A stretch of 57,410 nt of DNA from a candidate division WOR-3 bacterium (GTDB taxonomy: Bacteria > Hydrothermota > Hydrothermia > WGAB01). The notes under the pieces were generated by a model. The model was given only the letters and a program-made list of their open reading frames with translations. It searched no databases and was not told the DNA's origin. Below, piece after piece: positions 12,727-44,635 of the stretch. Numbering within the stretch: the stretch's first letter is position 1; each line of letters starts with the position of its first letter. The stretch is taken from positions 1-57,410 of the forward strand of contig JALXEF010000086.1 of NCBI GenBank assembly GCA_027069855.1. The letters are read 5' to 3'. The position numbers and the translations under genes were made by a program.

Positions 12727-12737
12727 GAGGAATGAAC

Positions 12738-16732: not shown

Positions 16733-16746
16733 AGGGAGGGTAAGTC

Positions 16747-17796: not shown

Positions 17797-17798
17797 TA

Positions 17799-20763: not shown

Positions 20764-20764
20764 A

Positions 20765-21850: not shown

Positions 21851-21871
21851 GCAGAGGGAGGTGAGGAAACC

Positions 21872-22090: not shown

Positions 22091-22539
22091 AGGAGCCGGC
22101 GGTTGCGGACAGCACATGCCTCATCGGTCTGGAGCGCATCGGGCGTCTTGACATCTTGCAGGCGCTGTTTGAGCCTCTGGTCATACCGCCCAAGGTTCAG
22201 GAGGAGTTTGGGGTGGCGATCGAGTGGATCGAAGTGGAACCACCTTCTAACCGGATGTTGGTAGATGCCCTGAAGTTGATGGTAGACGAGGGGGAAGCGG
22301 AAGCAATCGCTTTGGCGATGGAAAAGGGTTGGCCGCTGGTTGTGGACGATCGTAAAGCCAGAGCGTGGGCGAAACGTTTGGGCATTCGGGTGATCGGCAC
22401 GGCGGGGATTTTGGTCCGCGCGAAGCGGGAGGGTGTTATTCCGGCGGTTAAGCCGTTGATAGAAGCGTTGCAACAAGTGGGCTTTCGTCTGGGCACTGAG
22501 CTTGTGAGCGAGATGCTGCGCCTTGCGGGGGAGGAGTGA
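22087..22539 (+). CDS. DUF3368 PIN-domain (VapC-like) toxin
   Basis: VADSTCLI, V.EE, D.GEAEAIALA, VDDRKAR, GT.GIL..AK..G; overlaps the antitoxin stop. Confidence 0.9.
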   Translation: MKEPAVADSTCLIGLERIGRLDILQALFEPLVIPPKVQEEFGVAIEWIEVEPPSNRMLVDALKLMVDEGEAEAIALAMEKGWPLVVDDRKARAWAKRLGIRVIGTAGILVRAKREGVIPAVKPLIEALQQVGFRLGTELVSEMLRLAGEE

Positions 22540-22545
22540 AGTATT

Positions 22546-23232
22546 ATGCTGGAAGCCCTTCGTATTACGCTCACCGCGTACACTGCTTCTTTCCGGGTGC
22601 CCCATTTTGTCGGGCACCAGTTAACCCTTCCGGTGCCGCCGCTGTCCACAATTTACGGCTTGATCTCGGCGGCGGTTGGCCGCTGGGTGCTGCCGGAAGA
22701 AGTGGAATGGCTGGCTTATCGGCTCGAGTATGGCGGAAAGCAGATGGACCTGGAGGCCATATGGACGGTGGAACGTAAAAAGCCTCACGAAAGCGCCCGG
22801 TTTGTGACCCGCAATGTCATTCAGCGCGAGTTCCTCGCCTTCCCAGCCTTAACCCTTTACCTGCCCCCGGAGTGGGAGGCACCCTTCCGCCGCCCCCGTT
22901 ACCCCCTCCTGTTGGGTCGGACCCAGGATGTGGCCGGGGTGGAGGAGATCGCTCGGACGGTTTTAGAACCGGTAGATGAGGGCGAAGTTGGAGGCGTTTT
23001 GCTCCCCATGGAGCTGATCAAGATGGCTGAGCGCGGGTCCGCGTGGCTCCACAACCTTCCCGTCGCTTTCACCGAAGAACCGCTGCGCCATCCCCTCCGG
23101 ATGCATATCTTCGGCGTTGTGGATGCCCGTCGTCCGGCACATCTTCGAGGCCCGGAGGGCTGGCTGGTCAGGGATACCCAGACAAGTGCTATTGTGCCGA
23201 TATATCGGCGGGAATGGGTCCAGGGCGAATAG
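22546..23232 (+). CDS. cas5: Type I-B Cas5
   Basis: TASFRVPH, TLPVPPLSTIYGLISAAVG, REFL, P..LGR.QD. Confidence 0.93.
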   Translation: MLEALRITLTAYTASFRVPHFVGHQLTLPVPPLSTIYGLISAAVGRWVLPEEVEWLAYRLEYGGKQMDLEAIWTVERKKPHESARFVTRNVIQREFLAFPALTLYLPPEWEAPFRRPRYPLLLGRTQDVAGVEEIARTVLEPVDEGEVGGVLLPMELIKMAERGSAWLHNLPVAFTEEPLRHPLRMHIFGVVDARRPAHLRGPEGWLVRDTQTSAIVPIYRREWVQGE

Positions 23233-23251
23233 AGAGAGGAGGGGAACCGGC

Positions 23252-25522: not shown

Positions 25523-26006
25523 GAGCATTAACGCCACGGTCTTTTACGCCTATCAGATTTGCAAGCGGGAGGCCTGGTTCTATTACCACAGGGTGAATCC
25601 TCCCCAGGAGCATCCACTTCTGGATCTGGGGCGCTTGGTCCACGAGACTTCCTACCGTCGATCCCGAAAGGAAATCTTTGTGGATCAGATTCTCAAAATC
25701 GACCTGTTCCAGAAAGAACTTGTGGCCGAGGTCAAACGCTCTTCACGCCACAGGAAAAGCGCCCGCCTGCAACTGGCTTATTATCTTTACTACCTCAAAC
25801 ACGAAAAGGGCCTTGAACTGAAAGGCATCCTTCTATTTCCCAAGGAACGAAGAACAGAAAAACTCGAGTTGACACCGGAACTGGAACGACAAATCGAAGA
25901 TCTTTTACAAGAGATGAAGCAAGTCTTGAGGGCCGAGTTGCCTCCTTCGCCTGTACGGATTCCCCATTGCCGTTCCTGCTCCTTCCTGGAGGTATGTTGG
26001 GGATAG
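25506..26006 (+). CDS. cas4: Cas4 exonuclease
   Basis: CKREAW, G..VHE, ID, EVK, QL.YY, C..CS...C. Confidence 0.95.
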   Translation: MTRSFESINATVFYAYQICKREAWFYYHRVNPPQEHPLLDLGRLVHETSYRRSRKEIFVDQILKIDLFQKELVAEVKRSSRHRKSARLQLAYYLYYLKHEKGLELKGILLFPKERRTEKLELTPELERQIEDLLQEMKQVLRAELPPSPVRIPHCRSCSFLEVCWG

Positions 26007-26009
26007 CCC

Positions 26010-27008
26010 ATGAAGCGCGTCATCTATATCTTCAGCAACGGCTGGCTCAAACGGGAAGGCAACACCCTCGTTTTGATCGGGGAGGAAGACGAACCCAAGA
26101 AAGTGATCCCCATTGAAGTGGTGGAAGAGATCCGGGTATTCTCCGAACTCACGACAAATAAACGCCTCCTGGAGTTCCTGACCCAGAAACATATCCCCAT
26201 GCATTTTTTCAACCATCACGGTTACTATATGGGCACTTACTACCCCAGGGAATACATGAACTCCGGGCTGATCACCTTGAAACAGGCGGAGCATTTCTTA
26301 AATCCCGAGTGGCGCATGGAGTTGGCCCGTGCGTTCGTGTACGGTGCCATTTCAAATATGCTCTTCGTCCTCCGTACCTATAGCTCCCGGGGCCGGGACC
26401 TGAGTTTCCAGATCCATGCACTGGAAAAGCAACTGTCCAAAATCCCGGATGCCGAAGCCCCTGCCGAACTCATGGCTGTGGAAGGACATGCCCGGGACCT
26501 GTACTACACGGCCTTTGACCTGATCACCCAAAACCCTGATTTTTCCTTTGAAACACGCACACGGCGGCCTCCTGCCAACCGAATGAATGCATTGATTTCC
26601 TTCGGGAACTCGCTTCTCTATGTAACAGCCCTCTCAGAAATTTATCGAACCCATCTGGACCCAAGAATCGGCTATCTTCATCAAACCAACGAAAGGAGTT
26701 TTTCCCTGAACTTGGATCTGGCAGAGATCTTCAAGCCCCTGATCGTGGACAGGACCATCTTCTCGCTCATCAACCGAGCAGAGATCAACACAGGCGACTT
26801 CCACGAAGAATTGGGCGGAATCTACCTTAAAGAGGCCGGGCGCAAGAAATTTATCCAGGCCTTTGAAAAGAGGCTCGCCGAAACCCTGACCCATAAACGC
26901 CTGAGGAGGAAGGTTTCTTATCGCCGATTGATTCGACTGGAATGCTACAAACTTTACAGACACTTCCTTGGAGAAGAAGATTACTTTCCCTACATACGGA
27001 CCCGATAA
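26010..27008 (+). CDS. cas1: Type I-B Cas1
   Basis: EG..R..YY, R.RRPP.N..NALISFGN.LLY, LDP.IGYLH, SL.LDLAEIFKP. Confidence 0.97.
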   Translation: MKRVIYIFSNGWLKREGNTLVLIGEEDEPKKVIPIEVVEEIRVFSELTTNKRLLEFLTQKHIPMHFFNHHGYYMGTYYPREYMNSGLITLKQAEHFLNPEWRMELARAFVYGAISNMLFVLRTYSSRGRDLSFQIHALEKQLSKIPDAEAPAELMAVEGHARDLYYTAFDLITQNPDFSFETRTRRPPANRMNALISFGNSLLYVTALSEIYRTHLDPRIGYLHQTNERSFSLNLDLAEIFKPLIVDRTIFSLINRAEINTGDFHEELGGIYLKEAGRKKFIQAFEKRLAETLTHKRLRRKVSYRRLIRLECYKLYRHFLGEEDYFPYIRTR

Positions 27009-27275
27009 ATGTTCGTGATTCTGGTTTATGATGCAGCCGAAAGAAGGGTGCAGAAATTTCATAGAATTTGCAGAAGGTATCTAACCTGGGTGCAACTTTC
27101 TGTGTTTGAGGGAGAACTTTCCAGAGCCCAGTTGGAGCGGCTATTGGCAGAATTGAAAGCCGTTATGGATGAGGAGGAAGATTCCATCATCGTCTACACC
27201 TTTCGGACACTACATTACTTTAAAAGACAGGTGATCGGGAAAAGCAAGGGGAATCCCGAAGAGCTGTTCTGGTAA
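27009..27275 (+). CDS. cas2: Cas2
   Basis: VILVYD, RV.K....RRYL.WVQ.SVFEGE, DS.IVY. Confidence 0.96.
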   Translation: MFVILVYDAAERRVQKFHRICRRYLTWVQLSVFEGELSRAQLERLLAELKAVMDEEEDSIIVYTFRTLHYFKRQVIGKSKGNPEELFW

Positions 27276-27582
27276 AGCGCGGCGTGGGGTCTATCTGTCG
27301 ATTGTCGTTAAGTGTTTCTGCTGCGTGTGTTCTCCGAGGAGCGCACATTGGTAAGGGCTTATCCTGTGGCGAGGGGGATAGAGTTTGGTTTTTAGGAGAA
27401 CCTTGGGAGCGGCACGGACAGAGCGAGCCCCCAGCTCTCAAGAGTCCACCATACCGGAGCTATCGGATCCATCACTGTCTGCATTGACCGGGTCCCAGGT
27501 CGGTCCAGATCCTCTCTCAACAGGCCGCCATACGGAGCTATGAGAGTTCCTAAGACCAGCAGCCAACCGCAAAAGTAGGGGG

Positions 27583-27707
27583 TGCCGCCGGATCCCCTGG
27601 GGATTCTGCACCACCGAGGGTTCAGCGGCAAAACCGCGGGAAAGGTGCATTGCAAAACTCCCAGAACTGCTGTATTCTCAAGGCACAGACCATATAGGAG
27701 CTACTTG
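27583..27707 (+). promoter_or_regulatory. CRISPR leader with inverted repeat and promoter
   Basis: Imperfect IR TGCCGCCGGATCCC...GGGTTCAGCGGCA (27583-27630); TTGCAA-17 nt-TATTCT (27650-27678); directly before the first repeat. Confidence 0.75.
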
Positions 27708-30700
27708 GTTCCCAGCCTACCTACAAGGAATGGAAACAGAAATTCGCCTCCACCACCCCCTTTGAGCTCCGGGAGTTCCCAGCCTACCTACAAGGAATGG
27801 AAACGTAGTGCCACCGATACTCCAGACCAGGTTACACCAAGTTCCCAGCCTACCTACAAGGAATGGAAACTCGTGTACAGCATGGCACACCTCCTTTTGG
27901 TTTGGGGTTCCCAGCCTACCTACAAGGAATGGAAACGGCCGTGGCCCGCACGCCCAGGCCAAGGGGTTTCATGTAGTTCCCAGCCTACCTACAAGGAATG
28001 GAAACGCACCCTCCAGTCAACCTGTGCCCCACCCCCCTCCCGTTCCCAGCCTACCTACAAGGAATGGAAACAGGCCTTCGGTGCTGTAGAAGAGGTGCAC
28101 CCCGGGCTCGTTCCCAGCCTACCTACAAGGAATGGAAACGTGGCTCAAAAATAGGAGGTTCATGATGGCACTCAAAGTTCCCAGCCTACCTACAAGGAAT
28201 GGAAACATGAGAAGTGAAGGGGCCCCGCGCATAGTCGTATCCCGTTCCCAGCCTACCTACAAGGAATGGAAACTGGGATCACGCCTCCTGGGTACGATCC
28301 GTCTGGGAAGTTCCCAGCCTACCTACAAGGAATGGAAACAGCCTGGAAATATGCGAAGCACCTCGCTCTGCAGGTGCGTTCCCAGCCTACCTACAAGGAA
28401 TGGAAACCGAACGCCTCTACCTGCGAGACGCAGGGGAACAGGGGTTCCCAGCCTACCTACAAGGAATGGAAACGGTTGAATTGGTCTTCTATGTAGGCCC
28501 GGACCGCGAAGTTCCCAGCCTACCTACAAGGAATGGAAACTGCTGATCTGGTTGCCGGGATCGTGAGGGTGTGTTCGTTCCCAGCCTACCTACAAGGAAT
28601 GGAAACCCAAGAGACCATACCGGGATACTGCACCAAACCGAGTTCCCAGCCTACCTACAAGGAATGGAAACGGACCATTTCGGGGAGGATGCAGTCCCAG
28701 ACGGAGGTTCCCAGCCTACCTACAAGGAATGGAAACTCGTGTCCACCTCCGAGGGCCCGGGCTGGGGAATGTACGTTCCCAGCCTACCTACAAGGAATGG
28801 AAACCGAACTTCAGACTCAGGAACTTCTTGAACATCACGGGTTCCCAGCCTACCTACAAGGAATGGAAACGCGGAGGGAAGGAATGACCTGCCCAGCGGT
28901 CCGCATGTTCCCAGCCTACCTACAAGGAATGGAAACTCGGTGGTGTAAAGCAGATGGCCGACTGGTGTTGCACGGTTCCCAGCCTACCTACAAGGAATGG
29001 AAACAGCATCTCGGCCTCCAGGGTGTCGCTGGTTTCTCCGTGTTCCCAGCCTACCTACAAGGAATGGAAACGTTCCTTCTCCACGGGGACGGCGTTCACC
29101 ACGAGCCGTTCCCAGCCTACCTACAAGGAATGGAAACGGCCTACCCCGGGCTGGTGGCGGCGATGGTGCCCCGTTCCCAGCCTACCTACAAGGAATGGAA
29201 ACCAGTAAGTCGGTGAGCGTGACTACCTGTTGGAGATTGTTCCCAGCCTACCTACAAGGAATGGAAACCTCTGGAAGTCCTCCAATATGCCGGAGAAACC
29301 GTCCGTTCCCAGCCTACCTACAAGGAATGGAAACCGCTCTCCTGGAGGACGACATGGTGGCGTACCTGTTGTTCCCAGCCTACCTACAAGGAATGGAAAC
29401 TTCTGGCAACCCCAGGGGCCGAGAGGTTCATGTGGTGTTCCCAGCCTACCTACAAGGAATGGAAACTGCTTGGATTGCCTCCAGTCCAGCGCGACCTTCG
29501 TGTTCCCAGCCTACCTACAAGGAATGGAAACCAAGGTGCCCAGGCGGATGCGCAAGCCGGATAAAAGTGTTCCCAGCCTACCTACAAGGAATGGAAACTC
29601 ATATTGGTGGTGTCGGTGTTGATATCTCCGGTAGGGTTCCCAGCCTACCTACAAGGAATGGAAACTGCAATCTCCCGGGCCATCCGCCATGTCCTGGGGT
29701 GTTCCCAGCCTACCTACAAGGAATGGAAACATGAAGAGCGTAGGGAGTGCTGTGATCGCATCCGGGTTCCCAGCCTACCTACAAGGAATGGAAACTCCTC
29801 AAGGTGGTGGTCAAGGGCGGTCGGTTCACCGTTCCCAGCCTACCTACAAGGAATGGAAACAGGCCACCATCCGGGGTGGCCAGCGGCCGGTTGAGGGTTC
29901 CCAGCCTACCTACAAGGAATGGAAACGTTCTATGCATGGCCCCATCGGGCGGTCCTTGAAGGTTCCCAGCCTACCTACAAGGAATGGAAACGGTCCACGG
30001 CCCCGTCCTCAATCACCACCTGCACCACGTTCCCAGCCTACCTACAAGGAATGGAAACTCTCTCGCCTTGAGCAGTTTGCCCGGTGCCGGAGGGTTCCCA
30101 GCCTACCTACAAGGAATGGAAACGTTCCTAACCGGAGGTAAAACAATATGAGCGCTTTGTTCCCAGCCTACCTACAAGGAATGGAAACAGAGCTTGATCA
30201 CGGCAAAACTCAGCGGGTCCGCCGGGTTCCCAGCCTACCTACAAGGAATGGAAACCATCGTTCCAGGTACTGCCGTCATACGACTGAAGTACCGTTCCCA
30301 GCCTACCTACAAGGAATGGAAACCTATGCTCGCATAGTTCAGGACATCACGGTAGTTGCCCGTTCCCAGCCTACCTACAAGGAATGGAAACGAGAATGTC
30401 GGAGGACTCAATCTTTGTGGTGTCGCCGCGTTCCCAGCCTACCTACAAGGAATGGAAACGGCTTTCTCGATGGCACGTAAGACTTCTCGCTCAAGTTCCC
30501 AGCCTACCTACAAGGAATGGAAACGCGTAGCAAAGCCGCTGGCCGTGTTCGTTTCTGGCGGTTCCCAGCCTACCTACAAGGAATGGAAACGGAAATCCGG
30601 CCGAGGGGGATGCGGGGGATACGGGGTTCCCAGCCTACCTACAAGGAATGGAAACCACTATCAGGAACGATATTATCCTTGTAATACTTACGTTCCCAGC

Positions 30701-33700
30701 CTACCTACAAGGAATGGAAACGAGAAAGCGGGAGAAAGCGTGCTGCCCATCCCGTTCCGTTCCCAGCCTACCTACAAGGAATGGAAACGTTATTATCTTA
30801 ATTGGAGCTCTCAGGCGATCAACGGTTCCCAGCCTACCTACAAGGAATGGAAACCATTCTACCCTCACGAGGTAGAACTCAAAGTCGTCTGGTTCCCAGC
30901 CTACCTACAAGGAATGGAAACAATTTCTCCCGGTCTGCGGTGAAGTAAAGATTGGCAAGTTCCCAGCCTACCTACAAGGAATGGAAACCTATTATCAACG
31001 CCCTCATGGCTGTTGAAGGACGCACGTTCCCAGCCTACCTACAAGGAATGGAAACTTCCACATGTCCCAGGGTCACGGGCCCATACTTGAGCGTTCCCAG
31101 CCTACCTACAAGGAATGGAAACGGCGCATGGTGACCGTATCCCCTGCCGTGTCGATGGCGTTCCCAGCCTACCTACAAGGAATGGAAACGCCTCCAGGTC
31201 GGCGCGGTACACCAGGAAGAGGATCGTTCCCAGCCTACCTACAAGGAATGGAAACGTACACAATGTCGGCATAGTCTTCTAATGCCGCCTGGGTTCCCAG
31301 CCTACCTACAAGGAATGGAAACCCGATGCAAATGTAGTCAATGCCGTAGGTCTTGGCGAGTTCCCAGCCTACCTACAAGGAATGGAAACAATATCGGGTT
31401 GGATCAACTGGCGCGGGCCCGAATGCGTTCCCAGCCTACCTACAAGGAATGGAAACATCTATCTCCAGGGTCGTGTTTGCGAGGTCCTGGTAGTTCCCAG
31501 CCTACCTACAAGGAATGGAAACTCAACTCCTTGACCTTATTCCGGAGTTCCATATTTCCCGTTCCCAGCCTACCTACAAGGAATGGAAACTGTTGTAGGG
31601 GGTTAATGCCAAGCGGTGGTACTTCGTGTTCCCAGCCTACCTACAAGGAATGGAAACGCGACATGGCAGCTGCTATGGGCGTGAACATCCTGGTTCCCAG
31701 CCTACCTACAAGGAATGGAAACCGAAGGACCCCGTTGCCTTTTGGGTGCTGTCAAACTTGTTCCCAGCCTACCTACAAGGAATGGAAACGGGCGGTCGTT
31801 ATGGACTCGGCGGAGTTGTCTATGCTGTTCCCAGCCTACCTACAAGGAATGGAAACAAAGTACTTGCGATGAGGGATATACTGTCACTTGTAAGTTCCCA
31901 GCCTACCTACAAGGAATGGAAACGAATGGCAATCTGAACCTTGAGGATCGCCCAGCGGAGTTCCCAGCCTACCTACAAGGAATGGAAACGCCAGGCCCCA
32001 CTCTGTCCACGGTGAAGGCGTACAGGTTCCCAGCCTACCTACAAGGAATGGAAACATCTATCTCCAGGGTCGTGTTTGCGAGGTCCTGGTAGTTCCCAGC
32101 CTACCTACAAGGAATGGAAACGTCCACACCCTGGGCCTTTACCAGGTACCGGAGGGCGTTCCCAGCCTACCTACAAGGAATGGAAACATGCCCTCTCGGA
32201 TATCCCCGATGTAGTTCCCAAGCCGTTCCCAGCCTACCTACAAGGAATGGAAACCAATGTAACCCTCTGGAGAAAGGCGGAGATGTACGAGTTCCCAGCC
32301 TACCTACAAGGAATGGAAACCGATGAGGATGAGATACAGGCCGAACAGTGCGATCGCGTTCCCAGCCTACCTACAAGGAATGGAAACCCATCACGATCAC
32401 CATCATGCCCGGCCGTGAGGCCGTGTTCCCAGCCTACCTACAAGGAATGGAAACGTGCAGGATTTCCGGTTTCGGGTAAAGGGCGAAGGACGTTCCCAGC
32501 CTACCTACAAGGAATGGAAACTGCCCACCAGGGGAGAAGGCTATAGATCTTCTCCACGTTCCCAGCCTACCTACAAGGAATGGAAACTGAGTTCCTGCTT
32601 CAGGTCCTCCTTGAGGGCCTGGAGTTCCCAGCCTACCTACAAGGAATGGAAACGATACGCCGACATGCTTCACCTCCTGGATCACAAACGTTCCCAGCCT
32701 ACCTACAAGGAATGGAAACGCCGGAAACAGATTTACCCTTGAGAGCGCTCAGGCCGTTCCCAGCCTACCTACAAGGAATGGAAACTCGGCGCGGCCGCAG
32801 GGTGCTGGGGGGGCGACACTGGGTTCCCAGCCTACCTACAAGGAATGGAAACGTATTTCTTCGGCCTGCTACGGAAAGTCGCCCCGCTGTTCCCAGCCTA
32901 CCTACAAGGAATGGAAACGCGCATAGTCGTATCCCTCCCAAGGCTGCACGGAGGGTTCCCAGCCTACCTACAAGGAATGGAAACCTCTGTCGCAACTTTT
33001 CGCCCGCCACCCTTGCCCTGGGTTCCCAGCCTACCTACAAGGAATGGAAACGTGAAACTTGACCCTCACCTGGGGGCCTATGTGCACGTTCCCAGCCTAC
33101 CTACAAGGAATGGAAACGCGCCTCGCCCCGGCCCGGGCGGTGCTGCGCGCGCAAGTTCCCAGCCTACCTACAAGGAATGGAAACCCAGTTTGGGGTCACG
33201 CTGGGCAACCACACGCCGGGGTTCCCAGCCTACCTACAAGGAATGGAAACGGTACCACTCATCTACGGCGATTGTTGGCCAGTCATGTTCCCAGCCTACC
33301 TACAAGGAATGGAAACTACTGGAGGGCCTTCACCAGGCGGTTTGCCACCGAGTTCCCAGCCTACCTACAAGGAATGGAAACATGTCGGCCTTGATGCTGT
33401 CCCAGTCGGGCGTGTCAGGGTTCCCAGCCTACCTACAAGGAATGGAAACTGGCGGGAACTGGCCCAAGAAATCCTGCGGATCAACGTTCCCAGCCTACCT
33501 ACAAGGAATGGAAACACTATCTGGGAAAAGTTTGGACCTCGCCCCTTAAAGGAGTTCCCAGCCTACCTACAAGGAATGGAAACGATTTGTAGAGTTTAAA
33601 CACTCGTTAATCTCTTGCGGTGTTCCCAGCCTACCTACAAGGAATGGAAACGCGATACGGTTCTCGTGGACGTGCGTCCCCAGGAGGTTCCCAGCCTACC

Positions 33701-36700
33701 TACAAGGAATGGAAACGGTTATTTGTTTAACTCGTCTGCCTACCCTGTCTCTGTTCCCAGCCTACCTACAAGGAATGGAAACAGGGTCCTCTGAAGTTGA
33801 CGAATGGCCAGGACCGCCGGTTCCCAGCCTACCTACAAGGAATGGAAACCGCTTTCGTGGCTTGTGCCGCTTACGCTGATGGTGGGTTCCCAGCCTACCT
33901 ACAAGGAATGGAAACTGGGTGGTGGCCCTACTGGCAGCGGCAGGATTGAGCGGTTCCCAGCCTACCTACAAGGAATGGAAACTGCTTCTCCATCTCCTTC
34001 TTCAGTCGCTCCTCTTCCAGTTCCCAGCCTACCTACAAGGAATGGAAACATCTCAATCTCAAGCCAGTGTTCACGCAGGAATGCGGTTCCCAGCCTACCT
34101 ACAAGGAATGGAAACCTGGGATGAGCACGCAGAAGCGGAAACCCAGCACCGTTCCCAGCCTACCTACAAGGAATGGAAACCATTCTGGGCGACACGGTAA
34201 TGGTGCGCGGCATCAAGTTCCCAGCCTACCTACAAGGAATGGAAACTGGAACGCCTCCATCGCCCTCTGCACTTCCTTGGACGTTCCCAGCCTACCTACA
34301 AGGAATGGAAACGTGGACCCGAAGGCCGTGGAGTGGGAGCGTAACCGCGTTCCCAGCCTACCTACAAGGAATGGAAACACAGGATGGCCTCGTCTCCGTA
34401 TCTGGTCACGGCCTGTTCCCAGCCTACCTACAAGGAATGGAAACGAGGCCCTCGGCGATGTGCTTTAGGAGGGCCGTTAGGTTCCCAGCCTACCTACAAG
34501 GAATGGAAACGGTACCACTCATCTACGGCGATTGTTGGCCAGTCATGTTCCCAGCCTACCTACAAGGAATGGAAACTGGCGGGAACTGGCCCAAGAAATC
34601 CTGCGGATCAACGTTCCCAGCCTACCTACAAGGAATGGAAACGAAGGCCCGGGGCACATACGGCACGCTGTCCTCAAAGTTCCCAGCCTACCTACAAGGA
34701 ATGGAAACGCAGGTCTCCGGCGATGTCCTCCAGTTCCCTGGGATCGTTCCCAGCCTACCTACAAGGAATGGAAACGTGCTTCAGATCCTACCTGGGTTGA
34801 AACTTGAGCCCGTTCCCAGCCTACCTACAAGGAATGGAAACACCTGCCCCTGGCTCCGATGGACCGCCCCTGGGACGTTCCCAGCCTACCTACAAGGAAT
34901 GGAAACATGTCTTTAAAGGTGATTTCGGACGCCCGTTTCATCCCCGTTCCCAGCCTACCTACAAGGAATGGAAACGCAATGAAAAGATGCTTGCCATCTT
35001 TATCGCTGATGTTCCCAGCCTACCTACAAGGAATGGAAACTGGGTCATCTTGCTGATGATGTTGCTGAGGTCGGCGTTCCCAGCCTACCTACAAGGAATG
35101 GAAACAGTTCCCCAGGCCTCAGCCGGAGGGATTTCACCCCTGAACGTTCCCAGCCTACCTACAAGGAATGGAAACTTTTTCAGAACTGACCAGCGAACCA
35201 ACGCGCCGCCGAGTTCCCAGCCTACCTACAAGGAATGGAAACACGCTTTGCAGGATCAGCAGGATTCCGCGTGCAAGGTGTTCCCAGCCTACCTACAAGG
35301 AATGGAAACGTTCCTCAACGACTTGTTTCTCCATGTACACCTGGGCGTTCCCAGCCTACCTACAAGGAATGGAAACTATTTGAGCACCCAGAGATCGGGA
35401 CTTTCCTGGTAGTTCCCAGCCTACCTACAAGGAATGGAAACTTGTCCTCAGATTTCATAGCAGATGCGATAGGTGATCTCGTTCCCAGCCTACCTACAAG
35501 GAATGGAAACCGGATACTGTACTTCTGCGCCTCCCGCTTCACCCACGTTCCCAGCCTACCTACAAGGAATGGAAACATGGTCACGAACCCGCCGTACCGG
35601 CGGGCCAGAGCCGTTCCCAGCCTACCTACAAGGAATGGAAACGCAAGGTCGTACGCCTTAGCACAGATACCGGCATAAGGTTCCCAGCCTACCTACAAGG
35701 AATGGAAACATCATTCCACCATTTCAATCAAGATAGGGACTTGACAGTTCCCAGCCTACCTACAAGGAATGGAAACGCGACATGGCGGCCGCTATGGGGG
35801 TGAACATCCAGGTTCCCAGCCTACCTACAAGGAATGGAAACCGCAGCCCTCCCGGTGTTCGCAGTACGCAGGGGGCCGTTCCCAGCCTACCTACTAGGAA
35901 TGGAAACTGATAATTGCGGTTAACACTACGCCCGTTTCCACCGTGTTCCCAGCCTACCTACAAGGAATGGAAACTTTCTTCAAAGCTTGGGGGTTTTACA
36001 AGTACGGAGCGTTCCCAGCCTACCTACAAGGAATGGAAACAAGTTTCCTTCGCCATAAAGGTTGTGCTAAACTCTCGTTCCCAGCCTACCTACAAGGAAT
36101 GGAAACGATAGCATTTACACGAATGCCCCTGCGGAAGGCGTACGTTCCCAGCCTACCTACAAGGAATGGAAACGGATTTGCTGCGGGTCGCTTGGGGTAA
36201 TGGATTTCGTGTTCCCAGCCTACCTACAAGGAATGGAAACTGATTTTGCGTCGGGCCTCTTCAACGGCAGCAAGATGTTCCCAGCCTACCTACAAGGAAT
36301 GGAAACCCGTTAATCGTTGTTCTCCAACATCGGCTTGAGCCGTTCCCAGCCTACCTACAAGGAATGGAAACATGCTATGACGTCGACCTTTTGGGCAGAG
36401 GTTGACAAGTTCCCAGCCTACCTACAAGGAATGGAAACCGCCGACCGCCAGGGTGCCGGGCTTCCCGGCCCGGGGGTTCCCAGCCTACCTACAAGGAATG
36501 GAAACCTTCCCTCGATGTAGGGGTAAGGGGTGATGTCGATCACGTTCCCAGCCTACCTACAAGGAATGGAAACGTACAACACACGGAGAAACACCGTGCG
36601 GCCACTCGGTTCCCAGCCTACCTACAAGGAATGGAAACGGAGGGTAAACATGAACGGTGCTTTTCCCTTAGCCCGTTCCCAGCCTACCTACAAGGAATGG

Positions 36701-39562
36701 AAACATAAATCTGGACATTCCTGAAGACAGAAGACTGCTTGTTCCCAGCCTACCTACAAGGAATGGAAACTCAGCCGCAAGGCCAGCCTCAGAGGTGCCA
36801 GCATCGGCCGTTCCCAGCCTACCTACAAGGAATGGAAACGGTTCAAAGGGGACTTTCAGCACCTTGATGACCTCTTCGTTCCCAGCCTACCTACAAGGAA
36901 TGGAAACACAACCTCCGGGGCGAAGGCCTGGACTTCGTGATCCGTTCCCAGCCTACCTACAAGGAATGGAAACGTCCTACCTGTAAGCAGGAACAGGGCC
37001 CTGGCTCCGTTCCCAGCCTACCTACAAGGAATGGAAACGGCGCACGGTGACCGTATCCCCTGCCGTGTCGATGGCGTTCCCAGCCTACCTACAAGGAATG
37101 GAAACGGGCGATCCTTCCCCTGGTGTTTCTGGGAGCAGGACTGTTCCCAGCCTACCTACAAGGAATGGAAACTGCCTTGACCCGGTCCCCGTAGTCTCAG
37201 TTTAATCGTTCCCAGCCTACCTACAAGGAATGGAAACGGCTTTGACAGGAGATAGACGCCCACAATCAATCGCGTTCCCAGCCTACCTACAAGGAATGGA
37301 AACCTTTGAGGGTGGCATGGCAAGGTTCATGAACACCATGTTCCCAGCCTACCTACAAGGAATGGAAACTGTTCCTGGACGCCATCGACACGGCAGGGGA
37401 TACGGTGTTCCCAGCCTACCTACAAGGAATGGAAACGAGTTTCCTGGAGTCTGCGGCGCACTTCGGGGCGCAGTTCCCAGCCTACCTACAAGGAATGGAA
37501 ACTGGACAGGATAAGCGGCTGGGAAATGGGGTTGTGGTGTTCCCAGCCTACCTACAAGGAATGGAAACATGGCCTACCTGGCCACTCCCGGCTCCAATGT
37601 GCCGGGTTCCCAGCCTACCTACAAGGAATGGAAACTGTTCCTGGACGCCATCGACACGGCAGGGGATACGGTGTTCCCAGCCTACCTACAAGGAATGGAA
37701 ACGAGTTTCCTGGAGTCTGCGGCGCACTTCGGGGCGCAGTTCCCAGCCTACCTACAAGGAATGGAAACGTTCGATCGACTGGTCCGGCCAGATCTCGAAC
37801 CTGGTTCCCAGCCTACCTACAAGGAATGGAAACGACTATCTGTTTAACTCGTCCGCTTATCCCGTCCCGTTCCCAGCCTACCTACAAGGAATGGAAACTC
37901 ATCGAAAAGGCAATCAAACTTCGGAGGGAAGGAAAAGTTCCCAGCCTACCTACAAGGAATGGAAACCTGGATCAGGTTGTATAGGCTATTTCTGTCCATT
38001 CCGTTCCCAGCCTACCTACAAGGAATGGAAACAACATCGGGCTGGATCAACTGACACGGGCCCGGATGGTTCCCAGCCTACCTACAAGGAATGGAAACGT
38101 ATCAGGAGAGCACCGATGTCTGGGTGCTCAAATAGTTCCCAGCCTACCTACAAGGAATGGAAACTGGCCTGGAACTGGAACGGCAGGCCCTGCAGCTCCG
38201 GGTTCCCAGCCTACCTACAAGGAATGGAAACTGTCTCTGTAGATGTGGAGCACCACGGGCCCCTCCGTTCCCAGCCTACCTACAAGGAATGGAAACAAAT
38301 TTCACGACTTGGGGAGTGTTTTGTGTGGGGCGGGTTCCCAGCCTACCTACAAGGAATGGAAACTTGGGCCACCTCGTGGACTACACCGGTAGCGGCCTCC
38401 GTTCCCAGCCTACCTACAAGGAATGGAAACGATTATCTGTTCAACTCGTCCGCTTATCCTGTTCCCTCGTTCCCAGCCTACCTACAAGGAATGGAAACAT
38501 ATGTATCAGAGGGCACTAAGGCATATAGTTGACGCGTTCCCAGCCTACCTACAAGGAATGGAAACGAAAACGAAGGCGACCCTGGTCTCACCCTTCATCT
38601 CCGTTCCCAGCCTACCTACAAGGAATGGAAACGCGCTCCTCAATCGTTGCGATCTGCTTTTCGTAGCCCGTTCCCAGCCTACCTACAAGGAATGGAAACA
38701 CACAAGCGCGTGCTGGAACACAGCGGTCAATGTGCGTTCCCAGCCTACCTACAAGGAATGGAAACTAATCAGCTTTGCTCCGTGTTCCACAGCAGCCCGA
38801 AGTGTTCCCAGCCTACCTACAAGGAATGGAAACGGTTCACCACCTTCGTGGCTACATATGCAGCCGCCAGGTTCCCAGCCTACCTACAAGGAATGGAAAC
38901 GTAATCCAGCCCCTCCAGCTCCTCCTCGGGGATATCGAGTTCCCAGCCTACCTACAAGGAATGGAAACTGTTTTCGGCCAGCACGCCGTGGAGCGTGTGC
39001 TGGCGTTCCCAGCCTACCTACAAGGAATGGAAACTTATACAGAGTTAAAGAGGCACCCAGGCCAGGAAAGGGTTCCCAGCCTACCTACAAGGAATGGAAA
39101 CTGCCGGCTCATACTGTTTTCCCCTCCGCAGCGGCCCTGTTCCCAGCCTACCTACAAGGAATGGAAACCCTGGTATGACCCCCGGCCCCGGCGTTGGCGA
39201 GATGGTTCCCAGCCTACCTACAAGGAATGGAAACCAAAATCCCGAATGAAAAGTTCCCAGGCGGCCAGAGCCGTTCCCAGCTTACCTACAAGGGATGGAA
39301 AGGTGACTGCCTGAGAGAAAGCCAGCGACAGATTCTGCGTTTCCAGCCTACCAACAAGGTATGGAAACGGCCTCCAGTTCTCCGATCCGCTGTTTCAGAT
39401 CGTCCGTTCCCAGCCTACCTAAAGAGGAATGGAAACCTCCTCAAGTTGATCGACAGCCTGGCCCAGAACGTTCCCAGCCTACCTACAAGGGATGGAAAGG
39501 ATGCTCGCGCGCAAGACTCGCCTTATAACCACTTCTCGTTCCCAGCCCATAAGAAATGAAAG
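27708..39562 (+). CRISPR. CRISPR array, repeat GTTCCCAGCCTACCTACAAGGAATGGAAAC (30 bp), roughly 178 units
   Basis: Identical repeats with mostly 34-39 bp spacers. Count estimated from length, not counted. One internal variant at 35878; five degenerate trailer repeats (39273, 39339, 39406, 39470, 39538) give + orientation. Confidence 0.99.
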
Positions 39563-40256
39563 GACTAACTGTCGATGCACGGTGCAGCCGATCAGCCGGT
39601 ACGAGGCAAATCGCAGGGGGATCAAGCCCCATGCACCACCGCCGAAGGACCTGATGCCGGACCAGGGGTTTGCGTACAACCCGGCGGTGGCCTTTCGGCG
39701 GTTGCAAAAGACCACCTGGGACGAAGACCTCCGGGACATCGGGCCGGGGGGCTGTGAAGAGGTTTCCTTTGTAGAGCGGGTTTTCCGGAGGGGGTGTAAA
39801 CCCTTTGAGGAGTTGCCCCGGCGGCCGTTGCCCCAGGCATTCGGGATCAGGGGCAAGGAATTGGAGGAATACATCAAAACTCTGGATGGATGGTATCGCA
39901 CGCCTGCTGGGATCTATGTGCGGGTGAACACGGAGGACCTCCTGCAGCACATCCCGGAGGATCGGTGGAGATTTTTACCGTTGCTACCCTGGACATTGTT
40001 GAAACCTGCTGAAATATGGCTGGGAGTTAAATCTAAGGGACACGGCCCCGTGCTCAGAACCTTTAGCATCTTTGAAGACCCCAACAAAGAAATTGTGTAT
40101 GTGGCCATTGTGGATGTGGAGAAGTTTATGAGTGTGCTCACGACGTTCCCGATCAGCCTGAAAGAGGGGGTGCGCGGGGGGACCAAAAAGATCAGGAAAA
40201 AACTCCGGTATATTGAGAGGAAAATCAGACAGGGGGAATTGATCTATCAAAAATGA
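39492..40256 (+). pseudogene. N-terminally truncated phage MuF (minor head) protein with C-terminal PBECR-type nuclease domain, fused in frame to the array end
   Basis: NCRCTVQPI and PDQGFAYNP (MuF C-terminal motifs) from 39567; R.RFLPLL..TL..P.EIW ... TTF ... YIERKIRQGELIY resembles PBECR2. The first 25 codons derive from CRISPR repeats and a spacer. Alternative ATG at 39654. Confidence 0.7.
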
Positions 40257-40327
40257 GCCCCGGCTTCTCCGCCCTTCCACCGGAGCCTTCCAGGCTTCAT
40301 CGGGGGGCGGCCCTCCACCTGGAATCA
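40249..40327 (-). ncRNA. Predicted ~78-nt two-hairpin sRNA convergent to the PBECR ORF
   Basis: Own promoter; stems TTCCAGG/CCTGGAA and GGCTCCGG/CCGGGGCT; complementary loops CCGCCC/GGGCGG; terminal U-tract. Confidence 0.55.
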
Positions 40328-40332
40328 TCCAT

Positions 40333-40361
40333 AGTATAGCCAGCATTCTGAATCCCGTCAA
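40333..40361 (-). promoter_or_regulatory. Near-consensus sigma70 promoter
   Basis: TTGACG-17 nt-TATACT on the minus strand. Confidence 0.75.
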
Positions 40362-40405
40362 CCCCCCTTGACTTTTCTGTGTGCTTGCCTACAGGGTAGG
40401 GGGCG

Positions 40406-40465
40406 ATGGAAAAGTGGCTGGAAGTGTTCAAGGCTGGAGAGTATCCGCAGGGGTCTTTACCAAGA
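40406..40465 (+). pseudogene. 5' remnant of a Mu-like prophage protease/scaffold gene
   Basis: MEKWLEVFKAGEYPQG, then (one-base shift) VFT; resembles N-termini of Mu-like head proteases that follow MuF; similarity then ends. Confidence 0.45.
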
Positions 40466-40788
40466 AAACCGGTTAGAATTCACAATTCCGTGAGTCTTTA
40501 TAAATTGCTCGCAATAATTTGGACTTCCAAGACGATCCCGGACTGGACGAGACTATAAGCAACCGACGGCAACAGGCATAAATTAAAACTGACACTTTAG
40601 GTGGTAGTCTTGAGTTTCCAGGAACTCCAAGGATCCATGAATGCAGTCACCTCAAGCTGACAATTTTGATGGTGGCCTTAGAAGATACCGGAACCGACAG
40701 ATGCTTCTGAAAAACTGCGCAGGCTGAAGAGGATCCAACGGCATGGGGTGCCAGCATATGGCAGGGCCGTCTTTCCTGCGCTCCTGCC

Positions 40789-40995
40789 TCACCGATGGAA
40801 CCCTTCGGAGGCCCGGTTAAGCCGTCCGTCTGGATCTTCTGGGGCGGATGCTTTGTCGCGACGCACAAACCAAACCAGAACAATCATCGCTACCGCGAGG
40901 ATCGAAACCAATAGCCACAAAGGGAAAATTCCCAGGGCATCCATCAGAACAAAGAACGTCAACCAGGTAATGATTTCCAGAAGGCCCCACATCAC
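40789..40995 (-). CDS. Small two-TM membrane protein
   Basis: Two hydrophobic segments; TTGACA-17-TAAGGT promoter (41028-41000) ends 7 nt before ATG 40992. Confidence 0.55.
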   Translation of the reverse strand: MMWGLLEIITWLTFFVLMDALGIFPLWLLVSILAVAMIVLVWFVRRDKASAPEDPDGRLNRASEGFHR

Positions 40996-41230
40996 TCAAA
41001 CCTTACAAGCCATCCCTCAGAGTGTCAAGGGGAAATTCCACTGTTCCAGGACCAGGCTGCAGGAAACTTTTCCGATTTCCTCACAGAGAATCTTCTTGCC
41101 CAGAATCCTCCGGTGGATCGGGAAATCGCTGTGACCATGCCCGACCACGCAGAGCATAAATAAGCCGATCACGCTGGATGCAGGGGATTGTCATCCGGGT
41201 TCTGACCGCTCTTTGGTCTATAATGGGTGT

Positions 41231-41491
41231 ATGGGCGAGGTTGGGACTCTCATCTTGCTCGGGTTCTTAGTACCCCTCCTCCTCATCCTTATTCCCTTTC
41301 TACTGCTTGTCTCCCTACTCATTGCGCATCCATGGCTGTGGCTGGTGCTCATCGGCCTGGTGCTGCTGGGGCTCTGGCACCTTGCCACCCACGCCGAGGA
41401 GTGGGCCCAGAAACTCGGCCCGAAGGACACCGATGGCTTACCATCGCTGGATGCCGAAGCCCATCACCCCAAGGAGTTTAATCGCGGCTGA
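41231..41491 (+). CDS. Small membrane protein
   Basis: Long Leu-rich hydrophobic N-half; TATAAT at 41219-41224, 6 nt before the ATG. Confidence 0.55.
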   Translation: MGEVGTLILLGFLVPLLLILIPFLLLVSLLIAHPWLWLVLIGLVLLGLWHLATHAEEWAQKLGPKDTDGLPSLDAEAHHPKEFNRG

Positions 41492-42027
41492 AGCCGCTCC
41501 TACAAGACCAACCACCATCCTACGAAACACACTCCGATATCACTATCGCGGCTAAAGCCGCTTCTACATTTTGCAGTCCTGCGGGCTGCATCCCCTCCCC
41601 TCAATCCACGCCCACCAGGGGCGAGGACATCACAATTGGGAAAGCCAGCAGGCGCGGACGATCTACCGTGTAGCCCGACACCAGGGGCCGGGGTGATTCA
41701 ATCGCTACGGCTAAGGCTGTTCCAGAGCAGCACCCTGGTACCGCACGCCCAGATTCGTCGCGGCCAAAGCCGCTCTTACCAGATGGAACTGCGGCTGTAG
41801 GAGCCGCTTCAGCGGCAATCTACAGCTCCTACAGCAGAGATTCTCTCCAGAAAAGGATTGGGCGTCAGAGGTCCCGTGGGGTATTTAGGAGATTCATTGG
41901 AGCCGCTTTAGCGGCGATGGCAACTCTTGGACTGCGGTGCCCTGGCACCGCTTTGAAATCCTCTCCCTCAATCCCCGCCCGCCAGGGGCGAGGACGATTC
42001 GCTCGTCGCGGCTGAAGCCGCTCCTAC
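41482..42027 (-). repeat. Second REP-like cluster (mostly TCGCGGCTRAAGCCGCTCCTAC) plus a longer direct repeat
   Basis: Reverse copies at ~41482, 41546, 41758, 42006; forward variants at ~41797 and 41899; CCCTCAATCC.CGCCC.CCAGGGGCGAGGAC repeated near 41598 and 41965. Confidence 0.8.
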
Positions 42028-42134
42028 GGGTTCGCAGCGCGTCCTCCTGCCCGCCAGGGTGCCTGCAACGCTCCCGTTGCAGCGTTTCCAGAGAACGGAA
42101 AGGGGGCCGTGGCACCCGGCGTTGCAGGGAACCC

Positions 42135-42446
42135 TCAACTTCTCCAGGCCTCGTCCCAGAGCCGTTCAATTTCGCCCAGCAGTTCCTCGTAGGTCAACTC
42201 GCGCCCATCCTCCAGAGGAAACTTTTGGTCGGGATGGGGCGCGTTTTTGTGCCAGAGGTCTAAAAGCCATTCCCGGTCCGGGATCCCGTAGTCCCCGAGC
42301 GCCACGACAAACCCGTCCTCATCCACCTCAGCCAGAAAATACCCCAGCTCAACGCCCCGATACTCTCCGGCATAATACCGATCGTAGGAGAAATCCTCCC
42401 GGAGCACCAGCCACTCAAACTCATCCACATCCAGCACATACCGCAT
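42135..42446 (-). CDS. Small acidic hypothetical protein
   Basis: 103 aa, Asp/Glu- and aromatic-rich; TATCAT -10 box 6 nt upstream of the ATG. Confidence 0.7.
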   Translation of the reverse strand: MRYVLDVDEFEWLVLREDFSYDRYYAGEYRGVELGYFLAEVDEDGFVVALGDYGIPDREWLLDLWHKNAPHPDQKFPLEDGRELTYEELLGEIERLWDEAWRS

Positions 42447-42631
42447 GCCTCAATGATACTTCCTGTTGCCCGCACAGGGGGAGGAAGCATCTCGGTCTTC
42501 GTTTTTCGCAGTTTTCATGCAGGCCCCTTGGCATGTCAATGTCCGCCCCCAAACCCTGCAGACCAACCTGCGGCCCTTGCTGCGTTTACCGGCAAAACCG
42601 GGGGAACTCACCCAGGCCCGGCAAGGCCCGT

Positions 42632-44635
42632 TTACAACAGGTCTCCCAAAGAAACCGTGGGTGGGGGAAGTTGGTCAAAGGGGACCGGGTAGGAGGCCCA
42701 GAGCAGGTCTGAGAGGTCGTGGATGCGCGCCGCACGGAGCAGGGCCAGATTTCGGAGGTCCGGATTCAAGAGGTCAAAAAACGCCCCGAGATTCAGAAAC
42801 TTCCGCACCTTCCGCCAGTGTTCCAAGATTCCCAGTTCCAGGGATTCCAGGGGGACCTCCAGAACGCGACGGGGGTCCAGGGGGCCTTCCGCCCGTACTT
42901 CCAGCACCACTCCGGCGTAGTCGCGCGCCTGGAGATCCTGGAACCCCAGGGCCGAAGCCCACACAAATCCGGCCAGTGCCCCCAGGAAGTGGAAAAAGAG
43001 CCAGCGGTTGCCGGTCATCGGAAGCACGGGCACGGCCCGCGGGTCCAGCTCCGGAAACACCCGGCGTTTTACGGTCAGGCCGAGGTCCGGCGGCCACAGG
43101 GCCGCGCCCTTGCCCTTGAACACCTTGCGGCCGGTGGGCGCCACGGTTTGCACCTCCTCCACGAACACGCGGTTTCGCTGCACCGTGACCACCTGCCAGA
43201 ACCGGCCCTTCAGGGCGAAGGAGGGTGCCAGTTTTTCAATGGTGCCGATGTGCTCTCCGGTAAGAATGTGGTACACCTCGTACTCGGCGGGATGGTCCTC
43301 AATGTTGGAATGAATCCGGCCGAGGCCAGCGAGGCGGCGGCCCCTGGGGCCGAGGAACAGCAGGCCAGGCGGACGCCGCTCCAGGTATCCGGACTCCACG
43401 AGGTGCACCAGCAGGGGTGCCAGGTCGGGGGCAAAGATTTCCAGGGGCTCCAGGATGTCGGCCAGCGCCGATTCCGGCACCCCGGGCCGCTGTCGCTGGA
43501 GCGCGTAGGACAGGATCTGCTGAACAGCCACCGAGGGCGCGGGCTCGTGGCGGAAGGGTTCCACCTCACCCTGCCGCGCCCGGTCGAACAGCACCTCGTA
43601 GAACACGCGTTCCAGCGGAGGGCCGTACAGGCCCACCACCCGCAGAAAGGTCCGGCGGCGGTTCCCCCGGCCCACCCGCTGCAGGAAGGTGGCCACCGAA
43701 TCGGGCGGCCGCAGTAACACCACGAGGTCAATGTCGCCCACATCGATGCCGAGTTCCAGGGTGGGGGTGGCCACGACGATGCCCCACGGGTGGCGGAGCA
43801 TGGCCTGTTCCACGGCCTCGCGTTCCCGCTTGCTCAAACTCGCGTGGTGGGTCCACACGGCATGGGGATAGGCCACCAGTTGCCGCAGTTTGCCGGCCAC
43901 ATACTCGGCGTCGCGGCGGGTGGGGGCGAAGAAGAGCACCTTCCGCAGGTCTTCGTCCCGCATCAACTGGAGCACCCGGCGGAGGGCACCCTTGCGGGGG
44001 AACAGGGTGGCCTGCAGTTCCCGCGGCGCCCGGTGTTCCACGATCTCGGCCCCTTCGCCGAGGAACCGCCGGGCCACCCGTTCGGCCTCGGACACCGTGG
44101 CCGAGAGGGCGATCTTCTGGTAGGGAACCCGCCGGAGCCGGTCCAGGCGGCGGGTCAGCACCCGCACCTGGTCGCCCCGATAGGACTGGGCGTACAGGTG
44201 CACCTCGTCCAGGATCAGCACCTCCACGGTTTGGAACACCGCCGGGTGCCGTGCCAGCAAGGAATCCCAGGATTCGGGGGTGGTGATCAGCACATCGCTG
44301 GGCTTCTCGGGCCGGAACTCCGGGTGGTCGCCGGTCCTCCGCCGCACGGTTAGCCCCATCTGCTGCAAGGGCGTCTGGAGCCGGGCATAGAGGTCGTTGA
44401 CCAGAGCCCGGGTGGGGGTCACATAGAGGATGGACAGCGGTGGCCAGCCCGCCTGCTTGCGGCGCTCAGCCACTGGAGCCATCACGGCCTCGGTTTTGCC
44501 CGACGCCGCCGGCGATACCACCAGCACCGACTTCCCCTGAAGGATCGGCGGCACAGCCTTCTCCTGGATCGGGCGCAGGGCCCCGAACCGGCCGAAGAAG
44601 GGATGCCAGGCATGGGGCAGGAGGTCCTTCAGCAT
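42632..44635 (-). CDS. Lhr-like DEAD/DEAH box helicase
   Basis: PAASGKTEA, PTRAL.ND, RTGD, TTPES, DEVH, SAT, HHASLS, TLELGIDVG, QRVGR. Confidence 0.92.
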   Translation of the reverse strand: MLKDLLPHAWHPFFGRFGALRPIQEKAVPPILQGKSVLVVSPAASGKTEAVMAPVAERRKQAGWPPLSILYVTPTRALVNDLYARLQTPLQQMGLTVRRRTGDHPEFRPEKPSDVLITTPESWDSLLARHPAVFQTVEVLILDEVHLYAQSYRGDQVRVLTRRLDRLRRVPYQKIALSATVSEAERVARRFLGEGAEIVEHRAPRELQATLFPRKGALRRVLQLMRDEDLRKVLFFAPTRRDAEYVAGKLRQLVAYPHAVWTHHASLSKREREAVEQAMLRHPWGIVVATPTLELGIDVGDIDLVVLLRPPDSVATFLQRVGRGNRRRTFLRVVGLYGPPLERVFYEVLFDRARQGEVEPFRHEPAPSVAVQQILSYALQRQRPGVPESALADILEPLEIFAPDLAPLLVHLVESGYLERRPPGLLFLGPRGRRLAGLGRIHSNIEDHPAEYEVYHILTGEHIGTIEKLAPSFALKGRFWQVVTVQRNRVFVEEVQTVAPTGRKVFKGKGAALWPPDLGLTVKRRVFPELDPRAVPVLPMTGNRWLFFHFLGALAGFVWASALGFQDLQARDYAGVVLEVRAEGPLDPRRVLEVPLESLELGILEHWRKVRKFLNLGAFFDLLNPDLRNLALLRAARIHDLSDLLWASYPVPFDQLPPPTVSLGDLL

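Follow-up and report, generated by a model that had tools for sequence, protein, structure and literature searches.

The DNA analysed here, hereafter the window, is one whole contig of 57,410 nucleotides (nt) from the 2.14-Mb metagenome-assembled genome of a candidate division WOR-3 bacterium (G000; contig JALXEF010000086.1), and it carries a large type I/III CRISPR array, directly behind the old end of which lies what appears to be the 3' piece of a phage toxin gene of the MuF-PBECR2 type. The array (27708-39562, forward strand) comprises 179 repeats (30 nt) and 178 spacers, which are 33-40 nt long. It is preceded on the same strand by a cas operon (10926-27275), in which Pfam matches identified cas6, type III RAMP and large-subunit genes, the type I genes cas8, cas7, cas5 and cas3, as well as cas4 and cas1, ahead of cas2; its products include Cas6 (10926-11702), several RAMP proteins and a protein of 1011 residues that is typical of type III systems. 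The Cas2-like open reading frame (ORF) of 88 residues (27009-27275, forward strand) was taken from the ORF listing and named by eye rather than by a profile scan, and the 432 nt between cas2 and the first repeat (27276-27707) were considered to be the leader on the basis of their position only. The order of cas1, cas2, this leader and the array sets the direction of array transcription on the forward strand. The last five repeats, which begin at 39273, 39339, 39406, 39470 and 39538, are degenerate and the final one has lost 5 nt, which fits the trailer, or old, end of an array. The penultimate repeat (39470-39499) has two mismatches, the last spacer (39500-39537) is 38 nt long, and the last repeat (39538-39562) is reduced to 25 nt by internal deletions, with a score of 26 when aligned to the consensus. 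In type I and III systems, Cas6 leaves an 8-nt 5' handle on the CRISPR RNA (crRNA), and on this basis the final 8 nt of the penultimate repeat, ATGGAAAG (39492-39499), which start with ATG, are the presumed handle.

The longest open frame runs from this handle ATG to a stop codon over 254 codons (39492-40256, forward strand). The initial annotation of this DNA had drawn attention to the arrangement, and its description was confirmed in the sequence: the terminal 8 nt of the penultimate repeat begin with the ATG at 39492, and the frame, for which the closest in-frame stop upstream is at 39447, stays open through the last spacer and the shortened last repeat into the motif NCRCTV, which begins at 39567, 4 nt past the last repeat. 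Other in-frame starts are present at 39501, 39582 (GTG) and 39654; the last of these is preceded by AAGGA, as had also been described, and is used by the public gene call P0001 (200 residues). The stretch from the NCRC motif to GFAYNP (39567-39700) corresponds to the C-terminal tail of a MuF head protein that is truncated at its 5' end. It aligns with the C-terminal ends of the full MuF proteins P0008, P0011 and P0006, with residues 2-47 (counted after the repeat) falling on the extreme C-termini of whole proteins such as P0008 and P0011, and it gave a weak match to PHROG 220, 'minor head protein' (E 8.1e-5). Further downstream lies a PBECR2 domain, a ribonuclease (RNase) domain of the BECR fold that is complete to the C-terminus (39885-40250); its profile (PF18810) matched residues 132-253 above the cut-off (E 3.3e-10, 40.6 bits versus 27.1) and over profile positions 14-120 of 120, and a six-frame search scored 42.1 bits. 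The Pfam analysis of the ORF therefore upheld the PBECR2 part of the proposed MuF-PBECR identity, whereas Phage_Mu_F (PF04233) did not match the ORF product at E ≤ 1, only the last motif (NCRC) and the C-terminal tail being left of it. Because this profile match is absent and the tail aligns with MuF C-termini, the piece is, judging by its sequence, a MuF-PBECR2 gene that was cut just before the last MuF motif, i.e., a fragment of a MuF gene and not a MuF protein.

Most PBECR families, according to the passages of Iyer et al. (2017, PMC5512222) on PBECR and MuF, possess a His within the first helix as well as a C-terminal Thr or Ser. With regard to these catalytic residues, whose loss the initial annotation had held out as an objection to its own proposal, the conserved His was found aligned in LLQHIP, in a column common to P0006, P0009, P0010 and P0011, and a candidate for the conserved Thr lies in LTTFP, which was matched by eye to WTF, TAF and KTS of the relatives in a stretch that MAFFT left unaligned. 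The AlphaFold2 model was too poor for a fold search (mean predicted local distance difference test score of 41.8), and the order of its elements, with a helix at 123-128 and strands at 150-198, fits. The PBECR2 domain is predicted to have RNase activity. The toxin piece occurs as a single copy, and PF04233 has no match elsewhere in genomes G000-G004, hence there is no intact MuF gene in the genome; no matches to other phage families were found beside the piece or elsewhere in the genome. A search for relatives of the ORF protein among longer proteins, JGI metagenome contigs, IMG/VR and 60 related genomes returned none, and a 25-nt flank pattern had no match among the metagenome contigs. Two candidate relatives, P0004 and P0005, were treated as spurious, being repetitive proteins with many short matched stretches. 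An ORF at 40406-40558 was considered as the start of the next phage head gene and rejected, with a PHROG match at only E 0.31 and with 40286-40324 belonging to an island segment common with the sister-genus genome G003 that is described below.

The reality of the junction was examined by aligning contigs of four runs from three studies to 39200-42700 of the window; parts of this region that had no contig cover in some runs were given no weight. A 1753-nt contig of run X2, which comes from another study, covers 39470-39609 with the same last spacer (two substitutions) and extends to 41184, and other contigs match the window from exactly 39567 onwards. Moreover, the public protein P0010 (947-nt contig, public run X3) begins with M-E-T from the handle and continues through a spacer other than that of the window and an unshortened repeat into NGFNCRCTV and the remainder of the protein, and in P0002 (4037-nt contig) nine repeat units are read through into NGFNCRCTV at 89% identity, after which the protein departs from the common sequence behind 47 residues and ends five residues further. 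Since independent contigs and proteins from other samples carry the same junction, it is real and old. An artificial joining of an array contig to a phage contig at 39562, to which the initial annotation had itself pointed as a possible refutation, would not be surprising in a contig assembled from a metagenome, arrays being hard to assemble; with the junction recurring in independent assemblies from other samples and studies, such a chimera is refuted in practice and we give it hardly any credence. The residues NGF before NCRC are genuine MuF sequence, as P0008 has PPNGFNCRC at this position, and three additional codons of the gene are thus preserved in the P0010 form, where they immediately follow an intact repeat. 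The junction in the window looks like a later, eroded version of a P0010-type junction that stands behind a different spacer.

The strains also differ in the piece itself. The proteins of P0010 and the window differ in 3 of 130 residues up to residue 131 and in 25 of 75 thereafter, with no gap, and the alignment of the P0010 contig to the window ends at 39956; as we read the two alleles, such a mosaic is the mark left by recombination with another allele. Of the substitutions with the best support that are listed for the ORF, three are synonymous and four are not, which corresponds to a ratio of nonsynonymous to synonymous rates (dN/dS) of about 0.4 with too few sites to test. Additionally, single contigs in runs X2 and X6 join a CRISPR repeat directly to 40713, skipping the toxin piece, the degenerate repeats before it and the 456 nt that follow its stop (40257-40712), a stretch that lies on the same low-depth contigs as the piece. 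The piece has thus likely been lost in some strains, with additional letters between the two sides of the joint being possible. Since 40286-40324, which belongs to the lost stretch, is also found conserved in the sister genus, the form without the piece looks derived by deletion. An inverted repeat formed by 40711-40730 and 42496-42515 was considered as a cause of the breakpoint at 40713 and set aside, as it is only 75% complementary and one of many weak pairs.

The repeat of the array is present in 3 of 61 related genomes. In one of them, G003, which belongs to another genus of the same family, contig C104 starts with the same array, and its last good repeat is followed by a 36-nt spacer, a repeat that is broken off after about 20 nt and, at once, a MuF frame. 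In this fragment, the Phage_Mu_F domain is near-complete but weak (22.5 bits, below the cut-off) and PBECR2 lies in another frame with 31.7 bits, above the cut-off. A frame opened at the handle ATG of the last good repeat does not coincide with the MuF frame and runs into a stop after 23 codons. BLASTP revealed no similarity between the G003 fragment and the window allele and the lengths of their linkers differ, which indicates that they are different alleles and not diverged copies. The same type of gene is found at this site in both genera, with no other phage gene found there; the two cases are not fully independent because the type of island is common to both. A small acidic gene begins 8 nt past the toxin stop in G003, and its homologue, with a product that is about 70% identical between the genera, is the gene of 103 codons at 42135-42446 on the reverse strand of the window, opposite to the toxin piece. 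The surrounding 2.2-kb segment of the island ('segment X', 40286-42447) is inverted relative to G003 C104 1448-2543, and one breakpoint falls within the few bases between the toxin stop and the next gene. No relatives of the acidic 103-residue protein were found in the genome and viral contig collections, with no usable match in the Atlas and none in Pfam or PHROG. A predicted complex of the PBECR2 part (residues 95-230) with this protein scored 0.02 and 0.00 against a mark of 0.32, which counts neither way.

In the wider phylum, the genome G048, the repeat of which is three mismatches away, has no PBECR2 match and, by eye, no MuF-like sequence after its two arrays. Sub-threshold PBECR2 matches in G027, G115 and G251 are small stand-alone proteins, and no CRISPR-like repeats were found within their loci of 1.8-3.3 kb. 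One of these loci (L018, G027 C40 19432-22017) encodes a weak PBECR2 match of 95 residues and a partner of 72 residues in a type I restriction-modification system, where both lie between the subunits for specificity and restriction, and the two resemble a toxin-antitoxin pair embedded in it.

The in-frame join to the handle ATG was the feature on which the initial annotation had built its mechanism, in which array transcription and Cas6 processing supply the nuclease with its messenger RNA (mRNA). None of the three forward frames of the 30-nt repeat contains a stop codon, and the same ATG recurs in all copies, so that such a join can arise as a by-product. Within the array, 131 of 177 handle ATGs (74%) are followed by 25 or more open codons (median 50, maximum 367 over all), a length that carries the frame across the spacer and repeat behind them. 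Multiplied by the one-in-three probability of a frame match, this means that about 25% of the genes that abut the array would be expected to look fused to the handle ATG by chance, a cause that the initial annotation had itself called plausible. The in-frame fusion is real but often given by chance; it is weak evidence, and the arrangement alone says little.

According to the mechanism in its full form, the penultimate repeat would be cut by Cas6 while the damaged last repeat stays uncut, and the resulting leaderless mRNA would be translated from the handle AUG into a 254-residue protein of MuF tail and PBECR2, the synthesis of which is tied to crRNA processing. Its attraction is evident: the geometry is exact, a cas6 gene is present, the last repeat lacks the 5 nt, the second junction variant (P0010) is also in frame from the handle ATG, and the RNA of the junction is predicted to be unstructured. 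However, apart from the high chance rate, the G003 junction is out of frame and followed by a stop, and the 25 N-terminal residues are nothing but translated spacer and repeat, which are entirely different between the variants. The 8-nt handle is bound by subunits of the Cas effectors and type III crRNAs undergo trimming at their 3' ends, which would leave the RNA sequestered or shortened. Moreover, Cas6 leaves a 5'-OH, and leaderless translation in Escherichia coli reportedly needs a 5' phosphate, as is said in the title of a 2012 study by Giliberti et al. We consider this mechanism very improbable. Among the relatives, the fusion is in frame in P0010, but in G003 it is out of frame and split over two frames, and some strains are probably without the piece. 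The initial annotation is thus partly supported: it was right about the identity of the piece and about its position directly behind the degenerate trailer, in the sense of array transcription, whereas the coupling of a toxin to CRISPR expression remained unsupported and is largely explained by chance.

Phage DNA at the end of an array could also stem from the adaptation machinery, in which case Cas1-Cas2 would have inserted a gene-sized phage fragment at the last repeat instead of a normal spacer. The piece does start right at the repeat or 4 nt past it, as a 'mega-spacer' of this kind would, but there is no repeat on its right-hand side: the highest score of any repeat-like match in 40257-40760 is 19, a value that falls within the range of shuffled sequences (95th percentile of 21), and none was seen by eye in G003. 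CRISPR integration normally duplicates the repeat and occurs at the leader end. With the right-hand repeat missing, this origin is unsupported and appears distinctly improbable. A regulatory circuit between the array and the piece was assessed by comparing the 178 spacers with 39563-40712 on both strands, which gave no shared 12-mers, two 11-mers and 13 10-mers versus 12.8 ± 4.2 in shuffles. Because no spacer matches the piece beyond chance, a circuit like that of CreTA is not supported. In the sections on CreTA in PMC9458426 and PMC12737573, degenerate repeats adjoin a toxin within a CRISPR-cas locus and the idea of addiction is likewise put forward; the toxin CreT, however, is a small RNA that is repressed by a crRNA-like RNA with a partial match to its promoter, whereas the window holds a protein toxin domain of phage origin.

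A further possibility is that the gene has been domesticated. In this case, a PBECR2 RNase kept by selection would be expressed by read-through from the array with an ordinary internal or upstream start, and it would serve abortive infection or addiction to the island, possibly together with a nearby immunity protein. The gene lies in the direction of the array and has no room for a promoter of its own. The only sigma-70-like site found on the forward strand (40479-40506) is past the stop, with none ahead of the ORF or of its possible starts; no terminator-like site was found on that strand, and the scan for promoters and terminators gave nothing above shuffles. The intact frame with the conserved His and the candidate Thr speaks for such a role, as do the divergent C-terminal third of P0010, which has no frameshift, and the presence in two genera of different MuF-PBECR2 alleles that lie at the same place, each end just past the stop and constitute the only PBECR2 matches above the cut-off among the phylum genomes. 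The acidic gene directly behind the toxin in G003, with its homologue in the island of the window, would suit the immunity protein. Nevertheless, the G003 copy is split over two frames, P0002 breaks off five residues after leaving the common sequence, some strains probably do without the piece, and the few substitutions behind the dN/dS value do not permit a test of selection. The candidate immunity gene lies 1.9 kb away and on the other strand in the window, and its conservation between the genera, when the toxins themselves have no BLASTP similarity, is unlike that of cognate toxin-immunity pairs. We regard a domesticated toxin as unlikely, though not remote.

On balance, it seems probable, if only by a little, that the element represents the orphaned 3' part of a phage toxin gene (MuF-PBECR2), lodged at the old end of the array by recombination between phage and array and carried as a passenger. 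The piece would extend from 39563 to about 40270, comprising the last MuF motif, the linker, the complete PBECR2 domain and its own stop codon, between the decayed last repeat of the 179-repeat array and the rest of the low-GC CRISPR island. This reading builds on what is observed, namely the identity and 5' truncation of the piece, its real junction, its single copy with no other MuF match, its variation among strains, in presence as well as in mosaic alleles, and the different fragment in G003. The piece would have arrived by recombination of the old array end with an infecting phage, and its sequence would later have been exchanged with related phage alleles; the P0010 junction, where the most conserved MuF motif comes immediately after the repeat, is the result that would be expected of a crossover at a spacer against that motif. 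As a passenger, the piece would stand outside of CRISPR function, for which speak the lack of spacer matches beyond chance and the lack of promoter-like sites ahead of the ORF and of terminator-like sites on its strand. Any protein made from it would most likely come from read-through precursor crRNA, with a start at 39492 or 39501 or at 39654, and such a product would be a predicted PBECR2 RNase without the MuF domain. In the passages mentioned above, PMC5512222 describes the MuF domain as a mark of proteins that are thought to be packaged into the phage head.

Several observations weigh against a recombination scar. A scar that has long been neutral should decay, but the frame of 230 codons is intact and retains the conserved His of the family and the candidate Thr. 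In the two genera alike, the end of the phage piece lies within 8-30 nt of the toxin stop codon; such matching right ends would be odd for independent illegitimate events and hint at selection for a whole C-terminal domain or at an exchange of cassettes. Across 272 genomes of the phylum, PBECR2 matches above the cut-off number only two, and both are at the trailer of this type of array. Two of the three independent junctions (window and P0010) are in frame with the handle ATG, for which chance alone gives a probability of about 0.16. Unusually little structure is predicted for the RNA of 39470-39600 (z +2.36), and AAGGA before the ATG at 39654 lies in a predicted 14-bp stem (39638-39702, pairing with 39689-39702; -37.5 kcal/mol, z -1.73), which leaves the ATG in the loop. 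The joints that indicate loss of the piece have short sides (26 and 32 nt), and joints of this kind can come from repeats or from other organisms. Finally, no donor phage was found among the JGI metagenome contigs or in IMG/VR, and a repeat or a spacer-length unit at the P0010 junction cannot be shown at the DNA level, which is why the route by recombination is one that we infer. According to a broader proposal, the old ends of arrays are recurrent docking and exchange sites for orphan 3' cassettes of MuF toxins that are kept whole, swapped with phage alleles and transcribed as the tail of the precursor crRNA; the RNase would then depend on array transcription and Cas6 and form a built-in arm of abortive infection or addiction. 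We consider this proposal quite unlikely to be correct.

Comparable cases are known from other systems. In laboratory staphylococci, CRISPR spacers reportedly recombine with their phage targets, providing a route of transduction, as described by Varble et al. in Nature Microbiology in 2019. The resemblance lies in phage DNA that is joined to an array at a repeat or spacer and in strains that carry different versions of the phage sequence, whereas here a remnant is found fixed in the chromosome of uncultured vent bacteria, at the old end of their type I/III array. The orphan toxin-immunity modules downstream of cdiA and rhs genes are a further parallel, in which a 3' toxin piece starts from the motif that ends the constant part, exists as variable alleles and has no delivery part; these modules, however, lie behind an intact parent gene of the same family, whereas there is no parent gene in the window and the neighbour is a CRISPR array. 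The order of MuF end (NCRC), linker and PBECR2 is the same as in the MuF-PBECR phage fusions of Iyer et al. (2017, PMC5512222), with the conserved His and a candidate for the C-terminal Thr in the PBECR2 part. The window differs from these fusions and from the MuF polymorphic toxins in that the MuF domain is cut off and the piece stands directly behind a CRISPR array, and the passages of that study on PBECR and MuF describe no CRISPR-adjacent arrangement. For the MuF polymorphic toxin system of temperate phages (Jamet et al., 2017, PMC5576092), an N-terminal MuF domain, a prophage context and a following immunity gene are characteristic. In the window, there is no MuF domain and no gene following the toxin on its strand, and PF04233 is found nowhere else in G000; in that paper, the terms 'CRISPR', 'orphan' and 'truncated' each have 0 occurrences.

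In our opinion, the interest of the locus lies in the orphan MuF-toxin stub that recurs at the old end of the array rather than in the handle AUG. Even if it is only a scar, the locus would provide natural evidence, from uncultured vent bacteria, of recombination between arrays and phages and of a continued exchange of sequence between the scar and phages. That two genera have one type of gene at this site, but in different alleles, may point to a rule on which phage DNA reaches the ends of arrays. If the toxin were expressed, it would represent a protein toxin wired to crRNA biogenesis, of which no description was found in the literature linking PBECR and CRISPR, as far as its titles and the beginnings of abstracts tell; in the 2025 review PMC12737573, 'trailer' and 'leaderless' have 0 occurrences.

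The whole block of cas genes and array looks as though it was acquired as an island. Its guanine-plus-cytosine (GC) content is 0.49-0.60 from about 10 kb to 42 kb (window 10000-42637) versus 0.63-0.68 in the flanks, and the block is absent from G001 and G002, which belong to the same genus; both features suggest horizontal acquisition. Synteny with G001, a genome without this repeat, starts again only at 42638. No Rfam families were found in 26900-43000. Within the 456 nt behind the stop of the toxin piece lies an element of 39 nt (40286-40324) that is 92% identical, in inverted orientation, to G003 C104 2505-2543. Apart from the acidic gene, segment X contains two genes for small membrane proteins, at 40789-40995 on the reverse strand and at 41213-41491 on the forward strand. 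It also contains an element resembling repetitive extragenic palindromes, which is 24-33 nt long and present in six copies in both orientations (41475-42031); such elements are found at very high contig depth in the metagenome runs, and G002 has dozens of them at dispersed positions. In the array, a block of two spacers and three repeats is exactly duplicated (37340-37502 and 37606-37768), and five spacers in all are present twice. In the type I row of the cas operon, a toxin-like PIN/DUF3368 gene is located between cas7 and cas5 (22087-22539).

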